NCBI GenBank assembly: GCA_017469565.1
Contig: JAFUGC010000003.1
Coordinates: forward strand, 13,656 to 77,655
Reading direction: 5' to 3'
DNA: 64,000 bases
From: Clostridia bacterium
GTDB taxonomy: Bacteria > Bacillota > Clostridia > TANB77 > UBA1234
Shown here: positions 21,449 to 34,878 of the stretch, piece by piece
Position numbering within the stretch: position 1 is the stretch's first letter
How the letters are laid out: every line of letters begins with the position of its first letter
The notes under the pieces: model-generated
Told to the model about the DNA's origin: nothing
Seen by the model: only the letters and a program-made list of their open reading frames with translations
Database searches by the model: none
Translations under genes and position numbers: made by a program

Positions 21449-22351
21449 ATGGCAGAAAGGAAAAAGAAAAAAATGAAAAGCAACGAGAACGTTCAGAAAG
21501 AACTGGAAATCCGGGAAGAAATGAACCAGGAGGATGCTGGATTTGTGGAAATTCAGCAGGAGTATCTGCAGGAAAAGTATGAGGAAGAAATGAGTCAAAA
21601 GGCTCAGACAGACGGCACGCAAGAAGGTCATGTGGTGGATGAGCCGCTGAATCCTGATGTTTCCGTGGAAACAGAACAGACCAAGTTTGAAAAAGAGGAT
21701 GAGGAACGGCCGGTTGATGTTAATGAGGTGTATGGATATGTTCCTCCTAGGAAGAGACGCCCTAGACCCTCTAGTACTTTAAAAAGGCATTGGAATGCCA
21801 AGGAGTTTGCATTTGGTATACTGGAAGGAACTCTCCTTGGTTTGTCCATCTTAGTGGTGTTTCTCACCACATACCTTACATGGCATGGTGGCATGTCCAA
21901 ATGGAACTATGAAGTTGAAAATCTGTGTGAGAAGATGGCCATGGGTACTTGGGTGAATGGTCTCAATCTTATCGATGGCTATGATTCTCTAGAGTTTACC
22001 ACGTCTGATAGACAGACACTGGATACTATAGTCACTTATGGCATTCAGAAGAATGTGACTGCTGGCGAGGAATCTGATTTGAAACTGAGGATGAAAATCG
22101 GAAGTATTCAGATGGACTATGATTCTAAAAATCCTAATGTGTTCAAATTCGTAAATCACGATGAAATATATTTCAAAAATATGAAGGTTACGTTTGATGG
22201 ACTTTCGTATAAGGTGTCATACGGGGTGGAAATCATCACACTGACGCTGATGACGGTTGTGGTTTTACTAGCAGGGTTAATCATATATTATCTGTTTTAT
22301 CTGTTGGTCAAAAAACTTCTGTATGGATACAAGAAGGAGGATTTTCGTTGA
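21449..22351 (+). CDS. Hypothetical membrane protein (acidic N-terminal half, two TM segments)
   Basis: 300 aa. TM segments are FAFGILEGTLLGLSILVVFLTTYL and IITLTLMTVVVLLAGLIIYYLFYLLV. Start is ambiguous (21449 or 21473). Confidence 0.45.
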   Translation: MAERKKKKMKSNENVQKELEIREEMNQEDAGFVEIQQEYLQEKYEEEMSQKAQTDGTQEGHVVDEPLNPDVSVETEQTKFEKEDEERPVDVNEVYGYVPPRKRRPRPSSTLKRHWNAKEFAFGILEGTLLGLSILVVFLTTYLTWHGGMSKWNYEVENLCEKMAMGTWVNGLNLIDGYDSLEFTTSDRQTLDTIVTYGIQKNVTAGEESDLKLRMKIGSIQMDYDSKNPNVFKFVNHDEIYFKNMKVTFDGLSYKVSYGVEIITLTLMTVVVLLAGLIIYYLFYLLVKKLLYGYKKEDFR

Positions 22352-22569
22352 ATATAAGAAGAACAGTAACTTGTCCTCATTGCGGAGAATATCTTGCGAC
22401 GATTTCCGAGATAAGCGTAGGATCATTTATGGATGTTTGTATCCCGGAAACTCGGAAAATTGCCGAGTGGTCTAATGAGGCAAAAGTAATCCATACCTCT
22501 GAGCCGGATGTAGTGGAGATTATCTGCGGGACGTGCGGATACGGATGCAAAGTGGATTATAGAGACTAA
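22348..22569 (+). CDS. Small Cys4 zinc-ribbon protein
   Basis: 73 aa with CPHCG...CGTCGYGC. TTG start is 7 nt after GGAGG and overlaps the upstream stop. Confidence 0.45.
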   Translation: MNIRRTVTCPHCGEYLATISEISVGSFMDVCIPETRKIAEWSNEAKVIHTSEPDVVEIICGTCGYGCKVDYRD

Positions 22570-22632
22570 TTTTTAATCGGGTTGGGAATTTTTCCTGACC
22601 TGATTTTTTTGTCTTAACTTTCAAAAAAAATA

Positions 22633-22660
22633 TTGACAAGTAAAAATAAGGTGCTATAAT
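22633..22660 (+). promoter_or_regulatory. ctsR operon promoter TTGACA-16-TATAAT
   Basis: Consensus hexamers immediately upstream of the CtsR box. Confidence 0.55.
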
Positions 22661-22670
22661 ACTACTTGAA

Positions 22671-22689
22671 AGGTCAAAGAAAGTCAAAG
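22671..22689 (+). promoter_or_regulatory. CtsR operator (heptad direct repeat AGGTCAAAGAAAGTCAAAG)
   Basis: Matches the CtsR box consensus (A/G)GTCAAA-N-A-N-(A/G)GTCAAA. The location downstream of the -10 gives classic autoregulation. Confidence 0.75.
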
Positions 22690-22716
22690 TTAAATTTAAA
22701 TCGAGGTGATTGGAAA

Positions 22717-23169
22717 ATGAGACTATCAGAATTAATTGAAGAATATATCAAAAGTATGATGGCAGATAGTGATGAGTTTGTAGAGTTTGGAAGAAATGAA
22801 TTGGCAGAATATTTTCACTGTGTACCATCGCAAATCAATTATGTCATTAGCACACGTTTTAGTCCTGAAAGAGGCTATTATGTAGAAAGCAGAAGGGGTG
22901 GTGGCGGAAACGTCAAAATCAAAAGAATTGATATCACAAAGGATACTTATATTATGCACCTTGTCAATTCTTTAGATAAGAGTTTATCTCAGCAAGAAGC
23001 GGAAATAATGATTCATAATATGATTGATTATCAGGTGATTGATGAGAAGACGGGAAAGCTTTTGAAAGTGGCAACCAATGATAAGGTGCTAGGGCTGCCA
23101 AAGGAATATAGGGATGATGTGAGAACAAGAATTTTTAAGAATATGATTATTAATTTAATCAGTGAGTGA
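22717..23169 (+). CDS. ctsR: Class III stress-gene repressor CtsR
   Basis: MRLSELIEEYIK...SRRGGGGNVKI glycine-rich loop motif; RBS GAGGTGAT. Confidence 0.85.
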   Translation: MRLSELIEEYIKSMMADSDEFVEFGRNELAEYFHCVPSQINYVISTRFSPERGYYVESRRGGGGNVKIKRIDITKDTYIMHLVNSLDKSLSQQEAEIMIHNMIDYQVIDEKTGKLLKVATNDKVLGLPKEYRDDVRTRIFKNMIINLISE

Positions 23170-23204
23170 GGAATGGGCCTGTGCCTAAAAAGGAGGTAAT
23201 TTTT

Positions 23205-23780
23205 ATGAAATGTCAAAATTGTGGAGAAAATGAAGCAAATGTAAGATATACACAGATTATTAATGGAAAAAAAGAGGAAATTTTTGTTTGTGATAAGTGT
23301 GCCAGTCAGTTAAAGTTGGATATGAATTTTAAGTTTGGATTTGATGATGTCTTTTCATCATTTTTTGGTGAGCCAGCCTTTTTTAAACCTCTTGAAATTT
23401 CTGATGGTTTAGTGTGTGATGTGTGTGGCACCAAGTATGATGACTTTGCAAGTACTGGAATGTTAGGATGTGAAAATTGTTATCGTGTTTTTAGCAGGAG
23501 GCTTGATAACGTCTTGAAGAAACTTCATGGTAATAATAGACATATTGAGGAGGGAGAAAGACAAGTTCCAATGTCATCAGAAATCAGTGCTTCGAAAGAA
23601 AAGAAAAAGAGTTTAGAAGAGGTGATTGCGGAGTTAAAAGAAAAACTAGCAAGTTGTATCAAGAGTGAAGATTATGAGCAGGCCGCGATTATCCGTGACA
23701 AGATAAAAAAATTGGAGAAAAAGTTAAATGATAAAAAATTCAATACCAAAAAATTGGAAGATAGAGAAAGAGGTGAGTGA
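23205..23780 (+). CDS. mcsA: Protein-arginine kinase activator McsA (zinc fingers + UVR domain)
   Basis: CQNCGENEA/CDKC, CDVCG/CENC zinc motifs and UVR motif EDYEQAAIIRDKIKKLE; RBS AAAAAGGAGG. Confidence 0.85.
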   Translation: MKCQNCGENEANVRYTQIINGKKEEIFVCDKCASQLKLDMNFKFGFDDVFSSFFGEPAFFKPLEISDGLVCDVCGTKYDDFASTGMLGCENCYRVFSRRLDNVLKKLHGNNRHIEEGERQVPMSSEISASKEKKKSLEEVIAELKEKLASCIKSEDYEQAAIIRDKIKKLEKKLNDKKFNTKKLEDRERGE

Positions 23781-23782
23781 TC

Positions 23783-24784
23783 ATGAGTTGGTATTTGGAA
23801 AATGGGCCTGAATCAGATGTTGTAGTGAGTACTAGGGTAAGGCTTGCAAGAAATATTGTGGGTCACAAGTTTGTACCAAAGGCAAATGGGAAAGAGTTAG
23901 AAGAAGTAATGAATTTATTCAAGGAGAATAAAATAATTCCTGAACTTAGATTTGTAAGGCTTTGTGAATTGGATGAATTGATGCAAAATAGTTTGGTGGA
24001 GAAACATATCATTAGTAGAGATATTTTAAATGAGGAAAATGCAGCACTCTTACTCAATAATGATGAAGATGTTTGTGTGATGATTAATGAAGAGGATCAT
24101 GTTCGTATTCAAGCAATGAAGCCGGGATTGGATTTAAATGGTGCTTTAAAAATGGCCAAAGAAATTGATAGCAAGATTGCAAGCAAAGTGGAATATGCTT
24201 ATAGTGATATTTATGGATATTTGACAGCATGCCCAACCAATGTTGGTACTGGTCTTAGGGCTTCGGTTATGCTTCATTTGCCTGCACTTAGGATTACGGG
24301 TAGACTTGGCAAGATTATGGATGTGATTAGCAAGGTAAACCTAAATGTTCGTGGTGTTTATGGTGAGGGCACAGAAGCAATCGGAGATATGTATCAGGTT
24401 TCTAATAAGGCAAGTTTAGGAATGACAAATGAGGAAATAATTGTTAATGTAAAAGCAATTTCAAAGAAAATTATTGAACAAGAGAGAAAGGCTCGTGAAT
24501 ATTTAAAAGACAGAGGAATTGATTTTGAAGATAAGGTTTATCGTGATTATGGGATATTGACATCGGCAAGAAAGATTTCTTCCGATGAATGTGCTAAATT
24601 GATTTCCATTGTAAAACTTGGTGTGGATATGGGAATTATTAAAGAAATTGATTCTAAAAAAGTGAACGAAATATCAATCATGACAAAGCCTGCCACATTG
24701 CAAAAGTGCTATAAGGAGGCATTGGAACCAAATGAGAGAGATGTGAAAAGGGCAGAGTTAATTAAGAATATTATGAAAGAGTGA
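23783..24784 (+). CDS. mcsB: Protein arginine kinase McsB
   Basis: Phosphagen-kinase-like catalytic domain; conserved operon position. Confidence 0.9.
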   Translation: MSWYLENGPESDVVVSTRVRLARNIVGHKFVPKANGKELEEVMNLFKENKIIPELRFVRLCELDELMQNSLVEKHIISRDILNEENAALLLNNDEDVCVMINEEDHVRIQAMKPGLDLNGALKMAKEIDSKIASKVEYAYSDIYGYLTACPTNVGTGLRASVMLHLPALRITGRLGKIMDVISKVNLNVRGVYGEGTEAIGDMYQVSNKASLGMTNEEIIVNVKAISKKIIEQERKAREYLKDRGIDFEDKVYRDYGILTSARKISSDECAKLISIVKLGVDMGIIKEIDSKKVNEISIMTKPATLQKCYKEALEPNERDVKRAELIKNIMKE

Positions 24785-24798
24785 GAAAGGAGAATTTT

Positions 24799-27228
24799 AT
24801 GGCAATGATGTATAAGTTTACAAATAGGGCGGAAAAAGCAATTGCGCTTGCCCAAGAGGCTGCAGCGGAACTTGGACATAATTATGTGGGGACAGAGCAT
24901 TTGCTTTGTGGCTTGCTTCGTGAGGGAAGTGGTCTGGCATACAGAGTGCTTACAGACCAAGGAATTACGGACGAGAAAGTAATGAATTTAATTGAAGAGT
25001 TAATTGGAAGAAATGATTCTTTGACAGAGATGCCAACCGGTTTTACACCAAGAACAAAGCGTGTTTTTGAGATTAGCTTTATGGAAGCGAAAAAAATTAA
25101 TAATAATTATATTGGAACGGAGCACTTGTTACTTGGCATTATGAAGGAGGGTGATAGTGTTGCGTCAAGGATTATTCTGGAATTAGGGGTGGATATTCAG
25201 AAATTATTTTCTGACTTAGTAAAAACATTAAATGATGAAAATAGTGGAGGGGCCACCACATCGCATAAGAAACAATCATATCATCAAACGCCAACCTTAA
25301 ATCAGTTTGGTAAGGATTTGACTTCTGATGCTACTTCTGGAAAGCTTGACCCTATTATCGGAAGAGATGATGAAATTGAAAGAATCATTCAGATTTTGAG
25401 TAGAAGAACCAAAAATAATCCATGTTTAATTGGTGAGCCGGGTGTTGGTAAAACAGCAGTGGTAGAAGGACTTGCAGAGAGAATTGTGGAGGGAAATGTT
25501 CCAGAAAATCTAAGGAATAAAAGGGTAGTAACACTGGATGTTTCTAGCATGGTGGCAGGAGCAAAATATCGAGGTGATTTTGAGGAAAGGCTTAAGAAGT
25601 GTTTGCAAGAAATTAAAAAGAGTGGAAATGTGGTTTTGTTTATTGATGAAATTCATACCATTGTTGGTGCCGGTGCAGCAGAAGGTGCCATAGATGCTGC
25701 AAACATTTTAAAACCACTTCTTGCAAGGGCAGAGATTCAAGTAATTGGTGCTACTACATTAAATGAGTATCGAAAATATATTGAGAAAGATGCGGCACTA
25801 GAAAGAAGGTTTCAACCAGTGATTGTGGGTGAGCCAACTACAGAGGAAACAGTTCAAATTTTGAGAGGAATCAGAGATAAATATGAGGCACATCATAAAG
25901 TAAAAATCACAGATGAGGCGATTAAGGCGGCTGTGGATTTATCGTCTAGATATATTAATGATAGGTATTTGCCAGATAAGGCGATTGATATCATGGATGA
26001 GGCAGCATCTAGGGTGAAACTTGCATCGCTTACGGCTCCTAAAGAAGTCAAGAAGATGGAGGAGAAAATTGAGGAAACGGTGAAAGAAAAAGAGGATGCC
26101 ATTAATACGCAAGATTTTGAGAAAGCCGCAAAATTAAGGGATAGAGAACAAAAGGAAAGAGCAAAACTGGAAAAAATGAAGGTGGAATGGGAACAGAAAA
26201 ATCAAATTGCTACAACAGAGGTGTCAGAAAATGAGATTGCTGAAGTAGTTGCAAAATGGACGGGAATCCCAGTGAGTAAAATATCTGAGGCAGAAACAAC
26301 AAGACTTAAGAATTTGGAGCAAGAACTTCATAAGAGGGTAATTGGTCAAGATGATGCCATTGTCGCAGTGAGTAAGGCTGTAAGAAGAGGAAGAGTGGGA
26401 CTTAAGGATCCTAAAAGACCAATTGGTTCCTTTATTTTCTTAGGCCCTACAGGTGTTGGAAAGACAGAGACCTGTAAAGCACTTGCAGAATGTTTATTTG
26501 GTGATGAAAATGCGATGATTCGAATCGACATGTCTGAATACATGGAGAAACATACCGTGGCAAAACTGATTGGCTCACCTCCAGGATATGTTGGTTATGA
26601 AGAGGGCGGCCAATTGACAGAAAAAGTGAGAAGAAAACCTTATTCTGTAATTTTATTTGATGAGATTGAGAAAGCGCATCCGGATGTATTTAATATATTA
26701 CTTCAAATATTGGAGGATGGTAGACTAACAGATTCTCAGGGGAGAACGGTAGATTTTAAAAATACGGTTATCATCATGACATCGAATGTGGGAGCAAGAA
26801 ATATCACAGATCATAAGGCAATTGGATTTAATAGTGCAGAAGAAAAGAAGAAAAACTATGAACAAATTAAGAGCGATGTGATGAGTGAACTTAAGAAGGA
26901 ATTTAGACCAGAGTTCTTGAATAGAGTGGATGAGATGATTGTATTTAAACAACTAGATGAAACTGAAATTGAAAAGATCGTGGACATTATGGTTAAGAAT
27001 TCTATTGCAAGACTTCAGGATAGAGAGATTAAAGTGTCTGTTACAAATTCTATGAAGAAACATATTGCGAAAAAAGGATTTGACCCGTTATATGGTGCGC
27101 GTCCGCTAAGAAGGGCAATCCAATCTTTGGTGGAGGATAAGCTGGCAGAAGGTATCTTGGATGGAAAGATTAAAGATGGAGAGAGTGTAACGTTGGATTT
27201 TGCAAAAGATGAGGTTGTGATTAAGTAA
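24799..27228 (+). CDS. clpC: ATP-dependent Clp protease ATP-binding subunit ClpC
   Basis: Clp N-repeats, two AAA+ modules (GEPGVGKT, GPTGVGKT), UVR linker; RBS AAAGGAG. Confidence 0.9.
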   Translation: MAMMYKFTNRAEKAIALAQEAAAELGHNYVGTEHLLCGLLREGSGLAYRVLTDQGITDEKVMNLIEELIGRNDSLTEMPTGFTPRTKRVFEISFMEAKKINNNYIGTEHLLLGIMKEGDSVASRIILELGVDIQKLFSDLVKTLNDENSGGATTSHKKQSYHQTPTLNQFGKDLTSDATSGKLDPIIGRDDEIERIIQILSRRTKNNPCLIGEPGVGKTAVVEGLAERIVEGNVPENLRNKRVVTLDVSSMVAGAKYRGDFEERLKKCLQEIKKSGNVVLFIDEIHTIVGAGAAEGAIDAANILKPLLARAEIQVIGATTLNEYRKYIEKDAALERRFQPVIVGEPTTEETVQILRGIRDKYEAHHKVKITDEAIKAAVDLSSRYINDRYLPDKAIDIMDEAASRVKLASLTAPKEVKKMEEKIEETVKEKEDAINTQDFEKAAKLRDREQKERAKLEKMKVEWEQKNQIATTEVSENEIAEVVAKWTGIPVSKISEAETTRLKNLEQELHKRVIGQDDAIVAVSKAVRRGRVGLKDPKRPIGSFIFLGPTGVGKTETCKALAECLFGDENAMIRIDMSEYMEKHTVAKLIGSPPGYVGYEEGGQLTEKVRRKPYSVILFDEIEKAHPDVFNILLQILEDGRLTDSQGRTVDFKNTVIIMTSNVGARNITDHKAIGFNSAEEKKKNYEQIKSDVMSELKKEFRPEFLNRVDEMIVFKQLDETEIEKIVDIMVKNSIARLQDREIKVSVTNSMKKHIAKKGFDPLYGARPLRRAIQSLVEDKLAEGILDGKIKDGESVTLDFAKDEVVIK

Positions 27229-27349: not shown

Positions 27350-27958
27350 GTGATCACCGAAAAGAATAAAGAAAATATCATAAAAGGATTAGAGGCTGAG
27401 CTTGAAAATGGCACATTTTATCAAGTGAATCAGTGGGATGTGCTTGCAAACACTGACACGGATTTTTATCATGATGTTTTTGATTTATCTACATCAAAAA
27501 GTTATGCTACCCCTGAGTTTAAGGGTGTTGGGCTGTTTAGACCGCTTGTAAGTAATGAGTTTAATCCTTTAAATAGCACGGTTTATAATTATAAGGCAAG
27601 CTATGAGGCACCGGTACATGGAATGGCGTTTACTGGTAAGAATGGAGAGTATGTGGAGTCACATTATCTTTCCGGATTGAATTTAGGAGCAAGCATCACC
27701 AATGAGTTTGGTACAGTTACAGTGGAAGCGCCGGTTACTCATATAGATATGAAAATTAATAATATGGGTACGGATGATAATGTTCAAGTAAATATGGCTG
27801 ATATTCTACCAAATACCCAAACTGCTAATGTGATAGATTTTGCATCGGTTCCACAAGAACTTGCACTTGCCAAAAGAAATCATTGGAAAGATATTCTATT
27901 TATGGATGTGGATATTATAGGCAGTGTAAAGAAACTTTGGAAAAATATTTCTGTATAG
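27350..27958 (+). CDS. Hypothetical protein (202 aa)
   Basis: GTG start after AGAGGGGG; no recognisable domain. Confidence 0.45.
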   Translation: MITEKNKENIIKGLEAELENGTFYQVNQWDVLANTDTDFYHDVFDLSTSKSYATPEFKGVGLFRPLVSNEFNPLNSTVYNYKASYEAPVHGMAFTGKNGEYVESHYLSGLNLGASITNEFGTVTVEAPVTHIDMKINNMGTDDNVQVNMADILPNTQTANVIDFASVPQELALAKRNHWKDILFMDVDIIGSVKKLWKNISV

Positions 27959-27983: not shown

Positions 27984-28018
27984 AAGTGTGTAAGTGATTT
28001 TACTTACACACTTTTTTT
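27984..28018 (+). terminator. Intrinsic terminator upstream of the PK-like/PurA-like operon
   Basis: aagtgtgtaagt-gatttt-acttacacactt followed by TTTTTTT. Confidence 0.6.
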
Positions 28019-28168
28019 GCTTTTGATGCTTTCGGAAGGTGTCCCCAAAAACATTTTTGAAATTTGTTGCTTTTTATGTTAATCCCTGATAAAATGAATC
28101 CGCAATTGAATTGGTTTTGGGTAGTCTTTGTTTTTTGTTAAATGAAGAATGAAAAAGGAGGAATGTTT

Positions 28169-29093
28169 TTTGAAACGGGATTGTAGACTTATTGCAACGC
28201 TACCTTCATTGAGTAATTTGAAAAAGGTGCAAGAGGTTTTTGAGAGTGATTGTGTAGATGAAGTAAGGTTTAATACGGGAGTGCATGTGCCTTTTGCGGC
28301 GGAAGAAGCGCTGGATATTTTACAAAGGTTGTCACTGAAGTATGATAAGAAACTTTGGATTGATGTGAAGGGCAGGCAGCTTAGGATTAGCAAGTGGGCG
28401 GATCCTTTGTATTCTTGCATTGAACTCAATCACCATGTGGAGGTTTTATATCCGGCAGAGGTTTGTTTTAGAAATGGTGATCGGGTGAGAATTGCCCATA
28501 TCAAAGATGGAAATAAACTTTTTGTGGAACCGCTGCCCAAAGAGGCGCTTGGTGCAGGGCAGTCTGTGAATATTATTGGGAGAGATGTTGAGATTGATGG
28601 TTACTTAACGGAGAAAGATAAAGAGTACTTAACTGCTTGCGCTAAGCTGGGTATGCCTTGGATTATGGCTTCTTTTGTAGAAGAGTTCTTGGATTTCATG
28701 GAGATTTTGACGCTCCAACCGAATGCTCAAATTATGGCTAAAATTGAGTCACTCAAGGGAATGGAGCTTGTGACAAGGCATCCATCTGTACTTATGGAGA
28801 AGTTTAACATTTTTTCTCTAATGGCTGCGAGAGATGACCTGTATATTCAGACAGGTGAAAATTGCAGCATGTTAAAGCATTTGAAAGCAATTGTTGATGT
28901 GGACAGTGGGGCAGTTTGTGCATCCCGGATTTTCCCTTCTTTGGAGAGAAGGCAAACGCCTGAGTTTGCAGATTATGCGGACTTGGAACTCATGTATAGC
29001 ATGGGCTATCGGAGGTTCATGCTGTGTGATAACATATGCAATTACCATTTTGAAAAAGCAATCAAAGCATGGAAGGAGTTTCAGCATGGATAG
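28169..29093 (+). CDS. Pyruvate-kinase-like TIM-barrel protein (A-domain only; B-lid and C-terminal domains absent)
   Basis: TTG start is 7 nt after AAGGAGG. Motifs RLIATLPS, VRFNTGVH, LWIDVKGRQLRIS, IMASFVE, AKIESLKG, MAARDDLY align with pyruvate kinase KIVCTIGP, RLNFSHG, LLDTKGPEIRT, MVSFVR, AKIENQEG, MVARGDLG. ~308 aa instead of ~470+. Confidence 0.6.
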
Positions 29094-30549
29094 TTATGTA
29101 TTATGTGGAATGCAGTTCGGTGATGAAGGAAAAGGTACGTTTGTTGACTATATGTCACATAGAGAAGACGCGGATGCCGTTGTCCGGTATAACGGAGGTT
29201 CACAGGCATCGCATACGGTGGTGACTCCAAGTGGAACGCTTCATAAGTTTAGTCAGTTAGGTTCCGGAATGTTTTTGGAAAATTGTCACACATATATTAC
29301 GGAAAACACTGTGGTGAACCTGGATAATCTTATGGTGGAGTTGAAGGTTTTTTCGGAAAAAACTGGTATTTCTGTTTCTGAACTCATCAATCGGATTCAC
29401 ATTCATGAGAATTGTTTTGTGGTAACGCCTTATCACAAGCTGCTGAACAAGCTAAGAGAATTGTCATTGGGAGAAAACCGCAGAGGAACGGTTGGCACTG
29501 GTGTGAGTGAGGTCCGGTATGTGTTGGAAGAGTCTCAAAATTTTCCGCTTGAGCCATCCTTAGGGGTTCAAGTAAAAGATATTTTTGATTCTCGTGGTAT
29601 TCGTCCACTCCTTGCTGGTTTCATGGGGCTTCATGAGTATGTGAGTGCGTTCTATCAGGAAAATCAGGAAGTGATTTGGAAAAATACTCCTGAGGAGATG
29701 AAAGAGGGTTTACAGAAAGAGATAGATTCTTTGCTTTCTGGACAAGTTTTTAATCTTACTAACATTTATAGAAGATACTTTAATACGGTACCACGAGAGT
29801 TTAACCTGAAAAGATGTATTTATAGTACTTATGAACAGTCTTTGCACGCAAACTGTAAGAAGGTGATTTTTGAGGGGTCACAGGGACTTTTGATTGATGG
29901 TAAATATGGCATCAAGCCGAATACCACTTTTCTGGATACCACCAATCAGTTTGCTTTGAGGATAAGTAGGTACACGGACCATGTGACAAAGGTTGGTATC
30001 GTGAAGGCTTTTAGCTCTCGGCATGGACCAGGTATATTTCCCACGGAATCAGAGGAAGTGAGCAGTAAGATTCAAGACCCAAATCAGGAGGAATCTTTCT
30101 GGAATGGTAAGATTCGTTTTGGGTGGCTGGATGTGGTGCTGCTCCGGTATGCACAGCACATCAACCAGGTGGATGAGCTTTATTTGTCTTCCTTGGACCT
30201 GCTGGATGATTTTGAGGAACTCAAAATTTGTGTTGGTTATATATACGATGGCAAGGTAGATGAAGAATTCAATCGGACTTTCGAATATGTTGATATGTTG
30301 GACGGTAGGAAGTATATTGATGATATTGTGATGCCCAGTGACAGGCTGGGAGAGTACTTGAAACTTTGCGTTCCGGATTACATGTGCATCAGAGGCTGGA
30401 AGAAGGATATTTCTCAGGTGACTGATCAGGAGGAACTGCCAGTTCGGTGTAGAAATTACATTGGCTGGCTGGGACGTCTTATGAATCTTCCTGTTACGGT
30501 GGTGTCTGTGGGACCTACTCGGGAAAACAAGATACGAATGGATTCTTAG
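29086..30549 (+). CDS. Adenylosuccinate synthetase (PurA) family paralog, divergent
   Basis: ATG 29086 overlaps the upstream stop by 8 nt. GDEGKGT P-loop, VVRYNGGSQASHTV, RRGTVGTGVSE and FEGSQGLLIDGKYG correspond to PurA GDEGKGK, GGxNAGHT, GTTxRGIGPAY and EGAQGxxLDIDxGTYP. 487 aa. Confidence 0.7.
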   Translation: MDSYVLCGMQFGDEGKGTFVDYMSHREDADAVVRYNGGSQASHTVVTPSGTLHKFSQLGSGMFLENCHTYITENTVVNLDNLMVELKVFSEKTGISVSELINRIHIHENCFVVTPYHKLLNKLRELSLGENRRGTVGTGVSEVRYVLEESQNFPLEPSLGVQVKDIFDSRGIRPLLAGFMGLHEYVSAFYQENQEVIWKNTPEEMKEGLQKEIDSLLSGQVFNLTNIYRRYFNTVPREFNLKRCIYSTYEQSLHANCKKVIFEGSQGLLIDGKYGIKPNTTFLDTTNQFALRISRYTDHVTKVGIVKAFSSRHGPGIFPTESEEVSSKIQDPNQEESFWNGKIRFGWLDVVLLRYAQHINQVDELYLSSLDLLDDFEELKICVGYIYDGKVDEEFNRTFEYVDMLDGRKYIDDIVMPSDRLGEYLKLCVPDYMCIRGWKKDISQVTDQEELPVRCRNYIGWLGRLMNLPVTVVSVGPTRENKIRMDS

Positions 30550-30572
30550 AGAGAAGAAGAGGAGGATTATGC

Positions 30573-31175
30573 ATGAAAGATAAGCTTTATGAAGAGATTG
30601 ACCGGCGTATTACCACTGGTCAAAAGGTGAATGTGCTGATTGCTGGGATGACCTGTTCCGGAAAGAGCACTCTTGCCAGAGAAATTCAGGAGCATTATGT
30701 GTTTGGAAAGCATCCTAAACAGGTGTCTATTATTTCTCAGGATTGTTACTTTAAAAATTTAGGATTGATTCCTAGAAATAAAGGCGGCTATTTGATGGAT
30801 TCTCTTTATGCCTTTCATGCAGATGAGTACCGGGCTCATGCACAGTATCTGACTCAACATGGAACGGTGAGAGTGCCTCAGTATGACATTGCCAGAAATA
30901 AAAGGACGGCGGAATACACTAAAATTGAAAATGGAGATATTAATATCTTTGAGGGTTTGCATAGCATCCGGATATTAAGTGGACTGTGGCATAATGTAAA
31001 AGTCTATTTGGATACTGATGTAGAAACCTGCCTGGAAAGAAGGATTGCAAGGGATACGTCTTTATATGACGTGCCGGAGGAGCGCATTCGTGAGTACTGG
31101 GCGGAGTGTATTATGCCCTTAAGTAGAGAGTTCATTTTCCCGCAAAAGGAAATGGCGGATTGGATTATCAGCTAA
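30573..31175 (+). CDS. P-loop kinase of the uridine kinase/phosphoribulokinase family
   Basis: Walker A VLIAGMTCSGKST and an ISQDCYFK motif as in uridine kinase; 200 aa. Confidence 0.6.
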   Translation: MKDKLYEEIDRRITTGQKVNVLIAGMTCSGKSTLAREIQEHYVFGKHPKQVSIISQDCYFKNLGLIPRNKGGYLMDSLYAFHADEYRAHAQYLTQHGTVRVPQYDIARNKRTAEYTKIENGDINIFEGLHSIRILSGLWHNVKVYLDTDVETCLERRIARDTSLYDVPEERIREYWAECIMPLSREFIFPQKEMADWIIS

Positions 31176-31189
31176 AGGGGGAAATGCTT

Positions 31190-32236
31190 ATGACGGTTAA
31201 GGAAATTTATGAAAGGCTGCTGAGGGCCAAACGGCCGGTGGATTTTTTTGGTGAGGCTACCACGGAAGAGGAGCTGAAAAGGTTCTATAAGGATTTTGCC
31301 AAAAAGGTTCATCCGGATTTAGTGCCTGACTGTGACAGGTATCTTGCCGGTGAGGCGTTTTCTGTGCTGAATAGACTTTATCATTTGGGTCTTGCTGAGT
31401 TCCAACAGGGCATTTATGGCGTAATTGACCAGGTGCAACTGTATTCGCATCAGTCGCCGCTGTTTGAAATCACGGCTGGAGGAAAGCGGTATCAGTTTTT
31501 TGAGAATGTGTTTGAAGGCGAGGTTGCCTATCTTTTTAAGGGGAAGTCGGCCGATGATGATATTGTGTATCTGAAAGTAGCGATTGACCCAGCAGACAAT
31601 GAACTGATTGACACGGAGTATGATGTGCTTTCCACGCTTAGGCATCAGTCTTTTCCATATGTGGAACAGAAAATTCAGGTGAATGATACCAGGGCCATTT
31701 TGATGCGAGAGGTGAAGGGCATTACTATGCTGGAGCTTTTGGAGCAATATCCGCATGGTGTGCCTGCAGAGCATGTGATGTGGATGCTGGAGCGCCTGCT
31801 GAGTGCTGTGGGGTATCTGCATGCTAACTTTGTGGTGCATGGGAATATCAAGCCGGAAAATATCATCATTAACAAGGAAAATCATAATGTTTCCTTGGTT
31901 GGTTTTTCTTTCTGTATTCCTAAGGCGAATACCCCAGAGGCAAAGTACAAGATTCAAAATGATAATTATTCTGCTCCTGAGGTAAGTGCGGATGCCACGG
32001 TTTATCCGGCATCGGATGTATATTCGGTTGGCAAAATTGCGATTGCGCTTTTAGGAGGTGCCGTTTCTTCTTCTGGAATGCCCATTTCCGTGAATGCGAA
32101 AGTGAGGGCGTTTATCCGGAAAATGGTGAATCCTTCTATGATGGATAGACCAGACGATGCCTGGAAACTCTGGACGGAGCTGATTGAGCTCAGAACGGAA
32201 GTTTTTGGAACTCAGCGGTTTCAAAAATTGGACTGA
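31190..32236 (+). CDS. J-domain (HPD) fused to a Hanks-type protein-kinase-like domain predicted to be catalytically inactive (pseudokinase)
   Basis: N-terminal ELKRFYKDFAKKVHPDL (HPD tripeptide present). Kinase-like YLKVAI (VAIK Lys), HGNIKPENIII (HRD Asp replaced by Asn), VGFSF (DFG Asp lost), SAPEV (APE). RBS GGGGGAA. Confidence 0.6.
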   Translation: MTVKEIYERLLRAKRPVDFFGEATTEEELKRFYKDFAKKVHPDLVPDCDRYLAGEAFSVLNRLYHLGLAEFQQGIYGVIDQVQLYSHQSPLFEITAGGKRYQFFENVFEGEVAYLFKGKSADDDIVYLKVAIDPADNELIDTEYDVLSTLRHQSFPYVEQKIQVNDTRAILMREVKGITMLELLEQYPHGVPAEHVMWMLERLLSAVGYLHANFVVHGNIKPENIIINKENHNVSLVGFSFCIPKANTPEAKYKIQNDNYSAPEVSADATVYPASDVYSVGKIAIALLGGAVSSSGMPISVNAKVRAFIRKMVNPSMMDRPDDAWKLWTELIELRTEVFGTQRFQKLD

Positions 32237-32292
32237 GAGTGTGTTGGTTGAACATGACGCATGAAACAAATTAGTATAAGGAGGAAATCACA

Positions 32293-33243
32293 ATGGGTGG
32301 AAGCAGCTATGACCGGGATGTGTACAGTGGTAGCTCTAGTTCAGGCTGGGGTGCTAGTTCTTATTCAGCAATGAAGATGGGCAGTAGCACTTTGGATAGC
32401 TCCCTGAGGGCTAATGGTAAGATTCTGAAAAGTACAAGCAAGAATCCTATTATTGTGGTGCTGGATGTGACTGGCTCCAACATTGATTTTGCCAGATTGG
32501 TTTATGACAAGATGCCGATGTTTTATGGGCAGATTGAGCAGAAGGGGTATTTGGATGACTTTGATATTGCTTTTTGTGCGGTGGGTGATGCCTACACGGA
32601 TGATTATCCTTTGCAGATAGGTGATTTTGCAAAGGGGATTGCTTTGGACTCCCAACTGGAAAAGTTAGTGCTGGAGGGTGCTGGCGGAGGCCAGAGGAAG
32701 GAGTCTTACGAGCTTGCCGCTTATTATCTGTATAAGAATGCGGAGTTTCCACCGGGCAGTAAGCCTCTCATCTTCTTTATTGGAGATGAGGCACCTTATC
32801 CTAAGGTGAATGAGGTTCAGGCTCAGGAGTTTGGCATTGACTGCACTGAAGGTAATGTGGAGCCTTTTGAGCTTTTGCGGAAGAAGGTAAATGACAATGT
32901 CTTTATGCTCTTGAACAAGTATTGCAGTAGGAGTTTTGAAAGTGACATTACAGAGGCGTGGACCACGCGGTTGGCGCCAGAACATGTGATTAAGATTCAG
33001 GAGGAAAAGGCGATTGTGGACCTGATGCTGGGCATTATCTCCATGGTTTCGAATGCGAGAACGCTAGAGACTTATAAGGTGGATATGCTGGATAGAGGGC
33101 AGACACAGGAGCGGATTGCCGGTGTTTCGGAATCGCTTCAGAATTTTTCAAAGGTCACATCGATTGTGCCTGTGAAGGTGTCTGGGATAATTCCCAAGGC
33201 TTCCGGTGGGAAGCAAAGCACTCAGAAGGGCAAACGCCTGTAA
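32293..33243 (+). CDS. von Willebrand factor A (vWA) domain protein with a Gly/Ser-rich N-terminal low-complexity region
   Basis: IIVVLDVTGSN (MIDAS-like D-x-T-x-S), downstream FFIGDEAPY; RBS AGGAGGAAAT. Confidence 0.65.
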   Translation: MGGSSYDRDVYSGSSSSGWGASSYSAMKMGSSTLDSSLRANGKILKSTSKNPIIVVLDVTGSNIDFARLVYDKMPMFYGQIEQKGYLDDFDIAFCAVGDAYTDDYPLQIGDFAKGIALDSQLEKLVLEGAGGGQRKESYELAAYYLYKNAEFPPGSKPLIFFIGDEAPYPKVNEVQAQEFGIDCTEGNVEPFELLRKKVNDNVFMLLNKYCSRSFESDITEAWTTRLAPEHVIKIQEEKAIVDLMLGIISMVSNARTLETYKVDMLDRGQTQERIAGVSESLQNFSKVTSIVPVKVSGIIPKASGGKQSTQKGKRL

Positions 33244-33253
33244 GATGAATTTT

Positions 33254-33288
33254 GGTGGTACACTTATTTTAGTGTACCACCTTTTTTG
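33254..33288 (+). terminator. Intrinsic terminator after the vWA gene
   Basis: ggtggtacact-tatttt-agtgtaccacc followed by TTTTTT. Confidence 0.6.
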
Positions 33289-33329
33289 GCACTTTTTGTT
33301 GTTTTTTGATGCTTTTTCTATTTATGTGC

Positions 33330-33358
33330 TTGACATAATGATGGGCAAAATATATAAT
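33330..33358 (+). promoter_or_regulatory. Consensus sigma-A promoter TTGACA-17-TATAAT for the downstream acidic protein
   Basis: Perfect hexamers with 17-nt spacer, ~50 nt upstream of the RBS. Confidence 0.55.
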
Positions 33359-33410: not shown

Positions 33411-34832
33411 ATGGGTATTCGAAACTGGTTAAACCGCAGGCGTGAGATGGAAGACGGACTGGATGATGCGGCTGTTACTAGTTCAACTGGTTCAACCACT
33501 TCAACCGCTTCAACCGTGAATGACACTTCTTGTCATGTGAAGGTTCCCGAGAAGGTGGAGAATCTTCCGCAGATAGAGCGTGAGGCACTTTACCGGTGGA
33601 GCAAAGTGTTTTTGGGAGAAGTGGCGAGTGCAGATTATACCAAGCGGTTTGTGAAGTCCCTGAATATCAGCCCGTATCATATGGGAGATACTTATTGGAA
33701 TGTTAAACAGGAAGAAATGGAAAGGATTGGCTGTCTGACGGAGTGCTACCGGGCGTGCATCAGCAGAGTCTTTGCAGAGAATAATTTTCTGGCCGGCCCT
33801 GAGATGCTGGAAGAACTCATACGGGTTGTCACGGCAAATCTGGTAAGTCGCATGCTTCAGGAAACAGATATCACTTATGATTATGATCTGTCTGAGTATG
33901 AGAAAGAGATTTTTCAGTTTGGTTCAGAGCTTTTGAAGGCGGTTTATTGGGTGGCCACCGAGAATGTGGTGGATTTTGTTAGTCTTTACGAGAAAATCAA
34001 TCACGGTATTGATTTCAGGCTGAAAAGCATGTATGGGCCGGAGATTACATACCGGTATACTTACCTTATTCCGGCGGAGTATCTGTTTGAACTTCCTGAT
34101 TTTGTTTATGAAAAGAGATTGGGCAGTATTCAAGACAGGATGGAGGCTGTTCATGATGTGGAAGCCATCATTAGTGGAGTTCTTTCTCGGGATAATGATA
34201 TTGGTGATGGCGCAGTATACCTTTCCAAGCTTAAGGAATTCATGATAAAAGAAAAGGAGTTTCTGACACTGGATTTTGAGCATATTCTGTTCCAGTATTT
34301 TGAAGAGTTTAAAGAGGAGAACGAATTAACGTCCTATAACTTTTATGCTTATGGGATACATGACCTGATTGCTGCTATTCCGCAATATTTCCCGGAAATG
34401 ATTGTGGAGTCTTTTGAGTATCAGCTGGCAATGATGCAGCGTGTTTATGTATGCCAAGATGAAGTGGAGATGTTTGAAGAGGATCTGGTGGATCTGTATG
34501 AACGCATCGTCATTTATCGGAATTATAGAGCGGAAGATTTTCAGGTAACTGATTCTGATTCCTGGAAAGCAACTATTAGTAGTTTTTTTGAACTGGGGCT
34601 TTCGGGGTATGCACTGACCAGAATTTCGGATTTGCTCACGGATGGTTTAGGCGTGAGCAGAGATGAAGTGGAAGCGTACATTGAGAGTCTGACCCGGGAT
34701 TATTTGGATGATTGCTACTGGATTGGTACGGATGAGGAGAGCCTCATTCATATGATTCGGCTGCTGTCTAATCCTGTTGTTTACCGTGTGATTGAAGAAG
34801 AGAAGCCGGCCATCATTGACTGCTTCTGGTAA
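33411..34832 (+). CDS. Hypothetical acidic protein (473 aa) with a Ser/Thr-rich N-terminal tract (VTSSTGSTTSTASTVNDTS)
   Basis: RBS AAGGAGG lies 7 nt upstream; no recognisable domain. Confidence 0.5.
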   Translation: MGIRNWLNRRREMEDGLDDAAVTSSTGSTTSTASTVNDTSCHVKVPEKVENLPQIEREALYRWSKVFLGEVASADYTKRFVKSLNISPYHMGDTYWNVKQEEMERIGCLTECYRACISRVFAENNFLAGPEMLEELIRVVTANLVSRMLQETDITYDYDLSEYEKEIFQFGSELLKAVYWVATENVVDFVSLYEKINHGIDFRLKSMYGPEITYRYTYLIPAEYLFELPDFVYEKRLGSIQDRMEAVHDVEAIISGVLSRDNDIGDGAVYLSKLKEFMIKEKEFLTLDFEHILFQYFEEFKEENELTSYNFYAYGIHDLIAAIPQYFPEMIVESFEYQLAMMQRVYVCQDEVEMFEEDLVDLYERIVIYRNYRAEDFQVTDSDSWKATISSFFELGLSGYALTRISDLLTDGLGVSRDEVEAYIESLTRDYLDDCYWIGTDEESLIHMIRLLSNPVVYRVIEEEKPAIIDCFW

Positions 34833-34840
34833 GAATTTTG

Positions 34841-34878
34841 TGGTGGAGGAAAACTTGTTTCCTCCGCCATTTTTTTGT
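34841..34878 (+). terminator. Intrinsic terminator closing the accessory cluster
   Basis: tggtggagga-aaacttgtt-tcctccgcca followed by TTTTTTT. Confidence 0.6.

Follow-up and report, generated by a model that had tools for sequence, protein, structure and literature searches.

The 64,000-nucleotide stretch of Clostridia bacterium DNA analysed here (contig JAFUGC010000003.1, positions 13,656 to 77,655 of the forward strand; hereafter the window, with coordinates counted from its first letter) encodes a 348-aa protein in which a probable DnaJ-type J-domain is fused to a protein-kinase fold lacking both catalytic aspartates. This J-pseudokinase is the fourth gene of a five-gene operon (28149-33243) that specifies, in order, a pyruvate kinase (PK)-like barrel, an adenylosuccinate synthetase (PurA)-like ligase, a uridine kinase (Udk)/PRK-like P-loop kinase, the J-pseudokinase and a von Willebrand factor A (vWA)-like protein. 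Pseudokinase, vWA-like and PurA-like genes are found together in bacteria and in phages, and their association outlasts deep divergence, changes in gene order, fusion and transfer between phage and bacterium. We propose, with middling confidence, that the J-pseudokinase is a catalytically dead adaptor through which DnaK of the host would be linked to a nucleotide module, made up of the vWA-like and PurA-like parts, of the type found in biological conflict systems.

The kinase fold and its missing aspartates

The reading frame starts with an ATG preceded by the ribosome-binding site AAGGGGGA (see table for coordinates). An original prediction, made from the letters alone, had named this frame and a series of motifs, all of which we recover: ELKRFYKDFAKKVHPDL at residues 28-44 (31271-31321) with HPD at residues 41-43, YLKVAI at residues 127-132, HGNIKPEN at residues 217-224 (31838-31861), VGFSF at residues 237-241 (31898-31912) and SAPEV at residues 261-265. 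The Pfam Pkinase profile matches the protein well above its cutoff (72.2 vs. 31.7 bits, E=5.7e-20), and the AlphaFold model (pLDDT 90.5, with 23 homologues as input) resembles PLK1, PknA and Aurora in Foldseek comparisons (E~1e-13). In HMMER alignments to the solved kinases CDKL5, STK33 and CDKL1, N219 falls at the position of the catalytic HRD Asp and G238 at that of the Mg-binding DFG Asp. The glycine-rich loop (GxGxxG) is also degenerate, reading FEGEVAYLFKG with a single aligned Gly. The J-pseudokinase is thus a member of the kinase fold that fails three defining features of an active Hanks-type kinase (PF00069). The β3 Lys (K129), the αC Glu (E143) and the Glu of APE are present, K129 and E143 being invariant in our family alignment (A1).

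We found at least 230 close homologues of the J-pseudokinase, nearly all about 347 aa long and from uncultured gut Firmicutes (taxonomy is taken throughout from the labels of metagenome-assembled genomes, MAGs). Among 120 of these homologues, the HRD position reads HGN in 113, HEN in five, and NGN and HGI in one each, giving an Asn in place of the Asp in 119/120. A Gly occupies the DFG-Asp position in every one of the 120; the αC Glu and D276 are likewise invariant, the β3 Lys is kept in every listed variant of the LKV position, and APE is kept in 109. Since the double loss of Asp is constant among 120 homologues, it is a fixed trait of the clade rather than a sequencing accident.

An exhaustive profile search extended the family to 319 clusters (50% identity) at E<=1e-30. 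In the top 150 representatives, the HRD position is most often HGN (74) or HGA (16), followed by HGS, HCN and others, and an Asp (HGD) is found in only two. The DFG position, by contrast, mostly reads (V/I)DW(C/S) and retains its Asp, GFS being a minority state typical of the window's clade. The β3 Lys (139/150) and αC Glu (145/150) are strongly conserved, and most wider-family members also retain the Asn and His of the catalytic loop. The original claim of a kinase fold lacking both aspartates therefore holds throughout the protein's own clade but not for the wider family, where the HRD Asp is lost and the DFG Asp is mostly kept.

A probable J-domain in a variable N-terminal slot

The N-terminal module is modelled with helices at residues 3-12, 16-20, 26-40 and 47-72, and H41-P42-D43 lies between the last two. 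DFFG occupies the place of the DYYxxLG motif of J-domains, and helix II is basic (KRFYKDFAKK). Of 23 family members, 18 match the DnaJ profile with E<=0.01, the strongest at 8.8e-9, and many homologues carry a precomputed PF00226 match. HPD is present in 105/120 close homologues, the exceptions being mostly DPE, and is kept in two phage homologues (phage ET08, locus L006, and viral contig L054) and in Bacilli and 'Tenericutes' MAG homologues of 27-44% identity. The J-domain of the original prediction is supported by the conserved HPD, the matches in relatives and the modelled helices; the protein's own Pfam score is below cutoff. Taken together with the DFFG motif, the basic helix II and a short hhalign match to E. 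coli DnaJ in which helix II and HPD are in register, these features suggest that the region is probably a functional J-domain with divergent helices I and IV, and it is reasonable to infer from the conserved HPD that the protein recruits DnaK.

It is quite unlikely, in our estimate, that the region is instead J-like in structure only and has lost its contact with Hsp70, as in proteins of the Pam16 type, which would leave the protein as a scaffold or regulatory subunit of a PurA-like enzyme complex. This idea would account for the sub-threshold Pfam DnaJ score (21.0 vs. 27.8 bits, E=3.6e-4, profile positions 12-50 of 63) and for the weakness of the hhalign match (E=3.8e-4, 25 columns, probability 36%), in which only helix II and HPD align to DnaJ. 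It would also fit the degeneration of HPD to DPE, HSD, NPD and other tripeptides in about 44 of 111 wider-family proteins with a J-like N-terminus (HPD being found in 67 of the top 150 representatives) and the replacement of the J-domain by unrelated domains described below. Retention of HPD in most of the clade and in deeply diverged homologues, however, speaks for purifying selection on this tripeptide, and helix II has retained its basic face. The loss of HPD in about 40% of J-like relatives does suggest that coupling to DnaK is dispensable for the module as a whole.

In other family members the J-domain is replaced by an active Ser/Thr kinase, forming an active-kinase/pseudokinase tandem (P0280, P0286 and P0301), or by a NACHT, CHAT, caspase, TIR, TCAD9 or zinc-ribbon domain. 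A domain census of 122 representatives counted DnaJ in 23, TIR and TCAD9 in two each, and caspase, CHAT, NACHT and Asp protease in one each, so that the immune-type fusions are known from single representatives (two for TIR). In a sample of eight loci of distant members, the vWA-like and PurA-like genes follow the pseudokinase in seven, usually together with a PK-like gene; these seven comprise J-type (L060, L061, L068), tandem-kinase (L062), NACHT (L064), caspase (L065) and CHAT (L067) versions, and their vWA-like proteins all begin with MGG..Y.DV and end in ..KRL. The eighth locus, a C-terminal aspartyl-protease fusion, has no vWA-like or PurA-like neighbours on its 8-kb contig. A gene for a Trypco1-domain protein (L067 146-478) lies just upstream of the CHAT-pseudokinase version.

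Since the partners persist in distant loci, three proteins make up the conserved core, namely the HGN pseudokinase, the vWA-like protein and the PurA-like ligase, and the N-terminus of the first is a variable slot. Coupling to Hsp70 would then not be part of the invariant core, the J-domain being one of several exchangeable N-terminal domains and its HPD having been lost repeatedly. The original prediction recognised the fusion itself; the five-gene operon with its three nucleotide enzymes, a Udk-like fusion, the link to phages and the interchangeable N-terminus were absent from that account.

The partner genes in bacteria and phages

The five genes are closely packed, with junctions ranging from an 8-nt overlap to a 56-nt gap, and are delimited by terminator-like hairpins on either side, consistent with co-transcription. 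Their order is identical in 25/25 related MAG loci with enough flank, counted after removal of duplicates and originating from uncultured Clostridia, Bacilli and 'Tenericutes' of rabbit, mouse, sheep and human gut. The PK-like gene is first in all 25 and is also found in L054, L060, L061, L064, L067 and L068. The coordinates of the operon and its features are collected in the table.

Table. Features of the J-pseudokinase operon and its surroundings (window coordinates unless a locus is named).
Feature	Coordinates	Strand	Basis
Gene 1, PK-barrel-like protein, 314 aa, without the PK C-terminal domain	28149..29093	+	Pfam PK E=2.1e-10
Gene 2, divergent adenylosuccinate-synthetase-like GTP-dependent ligase, 487 aa	29086..30549	+	Pfam Adenylsucc_synt 8e-80
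Gene 2, P-loop GDEGKG	29119-29136		
Gene 2, catalytic His in SQASH	29200-29214		
Gene 2, FWNGKIRFGW, standing in for the aspartate loop GATTGRRRRTGW	30097-30126		
Gene 3, uridine-kinase/PRK-family P-loop kinase, 200 aa	30573..31175	+	Pfam PRK 3.8e-17
Gene 3, P-loop	30645-30671		
Gene 4, J-domain/pseudokinase fusion, 348 aa	31190..32236	+	ORF, Pfam, alignments, AlphaFold model
Gene 4, probable J-domain, residues 1-72 (DFFG ending helix I, helix II, HPD loop, long helix III)	31190..31405	+	Pfam DnaJ residues 24-64, model, conservation
Gene 4, HPD loop	31310-31318		
Gene 4, pseudokinase domain, residues ~91-340	31460..32209	+	Pfam Pkinase residues 105-311; CDKL5/STK33/CDKL1 alignments; conservation
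Gene 4, K129	31574-31576		
Gene 4, E143			
Gene 4, H217-G-N219 in place of HRD	31838-31846		
Gene 4, N224			
Gene 4, G238-F-S in place of DFG	31901-31909		
Gene 4, APE 262-264; D276; R320-x-x-D-A-W			
Gene 5, vWA-like protein, 316 aa	32293..33243	+	Foldseek, conservation, PHROG 2971 2.7e-33
Gene 5, MIDAS motif LDVTGSN	32461-32481		
Gene 5, FFIGDE	32773-32790		
Intrinsic-terminator-like hairpin, 3' of the upstream 202-aa gene, 5' cassette boundary	27984..28013	+	13-bp stem then T-run
Terminator-like hairpin closing the operon	33254..33281	+	11-bp stem (6 GC pairs) then TTTTTT
Acidic protein, 473 aa, outside the module	33411..34832	+	own promoter 33330-33358, terminator 34840-34870
NrtR-type regulator loci	L023 12091-12768; L030 6020-6694; L032 5380-6054; L033 690-1364; L068 1-6333		

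The gene 5 product has no Pfam match. Its identification as a vWA protein, already made in the original prediction, is nonetheless right, given its structural matches and its DxTGS metal-ion-dependent adhesion site (MIDAS) motif: the model (pLDDT 80.5) matches integrin beta-I, vWF-A3 and the NorD VWA domain in Foldseek (1e-6 to 2e-5). D58-x-T60-x-S62 and G164-D165-E166 are invariant among the vWA-like homologues aligned, and D-x-(S/T)-x-S is kept in all the distant ones. The protein begins with an invariant MGGxSYDRDVY, followed by a Ser-rich disordered tail, and ends in ..KGKRL. That this protein is a conserved partner was likewise borne out, its gene adjoining the J-pseudokinase at every related locus and in phages. 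Homologues in Clostridia and in myco-, vibrio- and rhizobiophages all share an MG(G/S)..(Y/W/F).. N-terminus (window 32293-32370), with Gly2 invariant; the fuller MGG..Y.DV form is seen in the bacterial copies and in L054, and C-termini end in ..K(R/K)L or RL. Some partners (L034 541-1986, L061 5065-6567 and L062 9780-11258) have an insert of about 170 aa between the vWA strands, with the pattern ..NDLDLHV.TP.GE.I.YG....CGG.LDVD.N...RKPVEN.RW...

A full-length homologue of the J-pseudokinase, annotated 'serine/threonine kinase', is present in more than 200 Bxz1-like mycobacteriophages (Bixzunavirus). In phage ET08 this is gp247, which has the motifs HPD, HGA and IDW and which hhalign aligns with the family, J region included, across 322 columns (probability 99.6%, E=1.5e-24). 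Its neighbours are the vWA-like gp248 and the PurA-like gp250, an arrangement that holds in more than 200 Bixzunavirus genomes. The vWA-like protein of ET08 (L006 7104-8888) contains an intein (CNTPDAP...ASSN|C) directly before its IFIGDE MIDAS-Asp motif, and Cali-type relatives are intein-free; since inteins usually occupy functionally critical sites, this marks the IFIGDE motif as important. J-pseudokinase, vWA, PK-like and PurA-like genes are also found together on a 139-kb IMG/VR contig (L054). The reach of our scans of genomes and viruses was set by the peptide patterns employed: within this limit, an IMG/VR scan with the vWA alignment returned three viral contigs, and one with the J-pseudokinase alignment returned no relatives. 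In Vibrio phage pv27 and Rhizobium phage RHph_TM39, the genes upstream of the vWA/PurA pair were considered as cryptic pseudokinases and rejected (hhalign probability <1%; the only Pfam match is NADAR).

The conserved Ser-rich tail of the vWA partner, beside its invariant MGG..Y.DV N-terminus, raises the question of whether the kinase fold could be an active atypical enzyme after all, phosphorylating this tail in a TerY-P-like phospho-switch, or catalyzing AMPylation or glutamylation as in SelO and SidJ. K129, E143, N224, APE and D276 are conserved, the DFG Asp is kept in the wider family, and HER3-type kinases with an Asp-to-Asn substitution keep weak activity. We nevertheless consider this improbable. 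The catalytic base is missing in 148/150 representatives, the Mg-binding Asp in 120/120 members of the clade, and there is no glycine-rich loop. Furthermore, no PP2C or other phosphatase gene was seen in any cassette examined, and the Ser-rich tail also occurs on phage vWA proteins that have no pseudokinase partner.

The PurA-like ligase scores far below the equivalog cutoffs of NCBIfam purA (235 vs. 402 bits) and PurZ (NF038379; 51 vs. 300 bits, over the N-terminal region only). It keeps the P-loop, D13, K16, H41, Q224, R305 and D333 of E. coli PurA. The aspartate loop, however, is changed from GATTGRRRR in E. coli PurA to x(F/Y)W(N/Q)Gxx(R)xG(W/H) in 33/33 vWA-linked homologues, with loss of T300, T301 and R303; T129 is not kept either, and V273 is a His in all vWA-linked members. 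We therefore rejected both identities, housekeeping PurA on the basis of the score and the replaced aspartate loop, and PurZ on the score. The retained residues suggest that the enzyme probably still carries out a GTP-dependent activation, with another second substrate. It should be noted that in PHROG the family goes under '2-aminooxy adenylosuccinate synthetase', which is a name and not a demonstrated function. The Udk-like protein also lies under its cutoff (99 vs. 180 bits for NCBIfam uridine kinase), and in one relative (P0093) it is fused to the J-pseudokinase.

The obligatory association with three nucleotide enzymes, and the Udk-like fusion in particular, would fit a ligand sensor, in which a nucleotide-like compound made or used by the neighbouring enzymes would occupy the pocket of the pseudokinase, without phosphotransfer, and so gate the output of the N-terminal domain, in this protein the engagement of Hsp70. 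The strong conservation of the β3 Lys and αC Glu, in the clade (Glu in 120/120) as in the wider family, and the retention of the DFG Asp and of the catalytic-loop Asn and His in most of the latter, are consistent with such a pocket. MLKL (HGK/GFE) is a cation-independent nucleotide-binding pseudokinase, and the HGx/GFx arrangement without Asp is similar. On the other hand, the glycine-rich loop is degenerate (FEGEVAY) and the metal-binding Asp is a Gly in the window's own clade, both of which usually weaken nucleotide binding. We regard a sensor of this kind, which overlaps with the adaptor proposal, as unlikely.

The neighbours of several cassette copies hint that the module is wired to NAD metabolism. 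NrtR-type regulators (NUDIX plus winged helix) adjoin it at five independent loci (table), and at one of these (L068) pncA, pncB and a nadE/nadD fusion come immediately before the cassette. The vWA/PurA pair of Rhizobium phage RHph_TM39 is near HAD, PRTase and NMNAT/NUDIX genes (L008 834-3098), and that of Vibrio phage pv27 is near a gene for a NADAR-domain protein (L007 4092-4742).

Three of the five genes have nucleotide-metabolism folds and several copies lie in housekeeping surroundings or beside NAD-salvage genes and NrtR regulators, as might be expected of an ordinary purine/nucleoside salvage operon that has no role in conflict and in which two accessory regulators are added to paralogues of PurA, uridine kinase and pyruvate kinase. 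This we consider very improbable. All three enzymes are far under their equivalog cutoffs, and the PurA-like clade lacks T300, T301, R303 and T129. The cassette is rare, foreign in composition and placed differently in each lineage, and is shared with phages; its relatives include proteins with TIR, caspase, CHAT or NACHT domains. The swappable N-termini, the carriage by phages and the patchy horizontal spread point to a module of biological conflict between phage and host rather than to housekeeping purine metabolism.

In the window, the cassette lies between the ctsR-mcsA-mcsB-clpC operon and ylxM-ffh, in an island of elevated GC content (0.41-0.47 vs. about 0.35 in the surroundings; GC climbs from 0.31 to 0.42 at the 5' hairpin). 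Serine recombinases adjoin some copies elsewhere, and no conserved flanking genes were found among related cassette loci beyond lineage-level synteny, the flanks being unrelated across lineages; the distribution is patchy and horizontally transferred. The proteostasis operon ctsR-mcsA-mcsB-clpC is directly upstream (window 22000-27228, seen via L057 1528-6039), a proximity that is probably coincidental since this neighbourhood is not conserved at other cassette loci. A 26-nt imperfect direct repeat (28007-28032 and 33290-33315, 77% identical, common core TTTTGATGCTTT) occurs just 3' of the terminator on either side of the operon and could be an insertion scar or mere similarity between terminator tails.

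The acidic, Ser/Thr-rich protein encoded downstream had been suggested as a partner; this did not hold up. Its gene is a separate transcription unit, with a promoter matching 12/12 positions of the sigma-70 consensus (TTGACA-17-TATAAT). The protein (88 D+E vs. 44 K+R, with a Ser/Thr-rich N-terminus) is encoded inside the GC-elevated island, has no family match in Pfam, PADLOC, NCBIfam or PHROGs, and has no homologue at other cassette loci. The 202-aa protein encoded in the interval between clpC and the cassette (27350-27958) was rejected as a partner as well: it has no match in the same four collections and no homologue at other cassette loci. Further downstream, trmD (37785-38472) is apparently split around its GGGxG motif into overlapping ORFs of 61 and 180 aa. 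Two independent assemblies, L057 and L059, likewise have two genes here, and the split could stem from a frameshift or from an assembly error that recurs, or trmD could be a pseudogene.

A putative adaptor between Hsp70 and a conflict-type module

In the mechanism that we propose, the pseudokinase domain would offer the vWA/PurA-like part a scaffold for docking or ligand binding, and the N-terminal domain would provide the output of the module. In the present protein, the HPD loop would stimulate the ATPase of the host DnaK, and Hsp70 would thereby be coupled to the assembly, remodelling or switching of the vWA/PurA-like complex, in parallel with the MoxR AAA+ ATPases that work with vWA co-chaperones. 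The PK-like and Udk-like proteins would be accessory nucleotide enzymes accompanying the conserved triad, and the operon would be mobile. Recruitment of DnaK, physical interaction among the products and a role in conflict are all points that we infer from the conserved residues and gene associations described above. J-proteins decide the targets of Hsp70, and pseudokinases serve as switch or scaffold modules.

The logic has precedents. MoxR-vWA chaperone/co-chaperone pairs and analogous systems that employ Hsp70 and fusions of DnaJ have been described, as have inactive kinase domains as parts of conflict systems (PMC7159879), and it is predicted that phage DnaJ proteins enlist the host's Hsp70 (PMC7824862). 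The J-pseudokinase shares with J-domain co-chaperones (DnaJ/Hsp40, PF00226), among them phage J-proteins that hijack the DnaK of their host (Rki of phage RB43; jumbo-phage DnaJ, PMC7824862), a helix II-HPD-helix III core at the N-terminus of a larger adaptor, phage homologues and a predicted role in bringing Hsp70 to a client. It differs in its sub-cutoff match and divergent helices I and IV. A Gly/Phe region and a zinc finger are both missing, a kinase fold takes the place of the canonical client-binding domain, and HPD is lost in many relatives. With Hanks pseudokinases (MLKL, HER3 with its HRN, plant tandem kinase proteins) it has in common a bilobal fold, the retained Lys and Glu, a replaced catalytic Asp, in this clade a Gly for the DFG Asp, and tandem relatives, but it belongs to a separate prokaryotic and phage family, linked to vWA-like and PurA-like genes, with the signature HGN ... 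(V/I)DW or GFS ... RPxDAW, and the likeness is one of fold. GAK/auxilin-2 also combines a kinase and a J-domain in one polypeptide; its N-terminal kinase is active, its J-domain is C-terminal and it functions in clathrin uncoating. We take the two proteins to be independent fusions with no homology beyond their domains.

In organisation the module also resembles the MoxR-vWA pairs and the ternary conflict systems built around vWA proteins (Kaur et al. 2020, PMC7159879), which likewise combine a MIDAS vWA protein, an NTP-using partner and a swappable N-terminus (caspase, CHAT, TIR, NACHT, kinase or DnaJ) and have a similarly patchy, mobile distribution; TCAD9 and Trypco1, the latter an effector-associated domain of the ternary systems, also occur in relatives of the present module. 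Here, however, both a MoxR AAA+ ATPase and a GTPase of the kinds reported there are missing, and the NTP-using partner is a PurA-like ligase with its catalytic residues intact, together with the PK-like and Udk-like enzymes. The word 'adenylosuccinate' occurs 0 times in PMC7159879, and the PurA-like combination is not mentioned there. Membership of the MoxR-vWA group was rejected since neither the operon nor its conserved neighbourhood contains a MoxR-type AAA+ gene. The TerY-P triad (vWA protein TerY, Ser/Thr kinase and PP2C) also places a vWA gene beside a kinase-fold gene; membership was rejected here as well, given that the kinase is inactive, there is no PP2C in the operon or related loci, and the vWA protein has no TerY/VWA Pfam match. 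Of the known anti-phage kinase systems, PD-T4-6, Mokosh MkoA, MADS mad6 and BREX PglW were rejected, only the kinase-domain portion being matched (MkoA positions 9-276 of 1112; PglW positions 538-667 of 1403).

In addition to the weak DnaJ scores and HPD losses considered above, several observations weigh against the proposed adaptor. The vWA-like/PurA-like pair occurs without a pseudokinase in Vibrio phage pv27, in Rhizobium phages and on two more IMG/VR contigs. Most chromosomal copies lie in housekeeping neighbourhoods rather than in obvious defence islands, and PADLOC gave only generic kinase-domain matches and nothing meaningful for the other four cassette proteins. Lastly, carriage by lytic phages would fit a role in favour of the phage as well as one in defence.

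Neither a fusion of J-domain and pseudokinase nor an association of vWA, PurA-like and kinase genes turned up in full-text searches of the literature; in mycobacteriophage papers the genes appear by name only. The module of pseudokinase, vWA-like protein and PurA-like ligase is apparently widespread, common to gut bacteria and large phages, and undescribed. A more far-reaching proposal, possible though doubtful, is that it represents an undescribed class of nucleotide-based phage-host conflict system, in which the PurA-like enzyme, with GTP-dependent phosphoryl activation retained but an aromatic W-(N/Q)-G loop in place of the aspartate loop, would make a non-canonical product and the pseudokinase would sense this state and fire a swappable output. 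As part of this same doubtful proposal, the outputs would be the J-domain acting on Hsp70, TIR, caspase or CHAT, NACHT, or an active kinase. Candidates for the product are a rebuilt or diverted NAD-related or adenine nucleotide, a signalling nucleotide, or a purine nucleotide ligated to the invariant N-terminal Gly of the vWA protein; the first is suggested by the recurrent NrtR, pncA-pncB-nadE/nadD, NMNAT and NADAR neighbours.

Globally, one odd reading frame has led to a definable module, in which an HGN pseudokinase is joined by a vWA protein of the MGG type and by a PurA-like ligase, and in some cases also by PK-like and Udk-like enzymes. It has hundreds of members, found in gut Firmicutes, in bacteria of marine and soil origin, and in over 200 Bxz1-like mycobacteriophages that have been sequenced. 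It offers a testable function for the 'kinase', 'hypothetical' and 'PurA-like' genes of the genetically tractable SEA-PHAGES cluster C genomes. We see in it a module centred on vWA and tied to NTPs, in which effector domains can be exchanged and a J-protein is the putative adaptor; there is a real chance that it will prove categorically new on account of its PurA-like chemistry. The module may reveal new PurA-type chemistry, and may show Hsp70 acting as the output arm of a conflict system.

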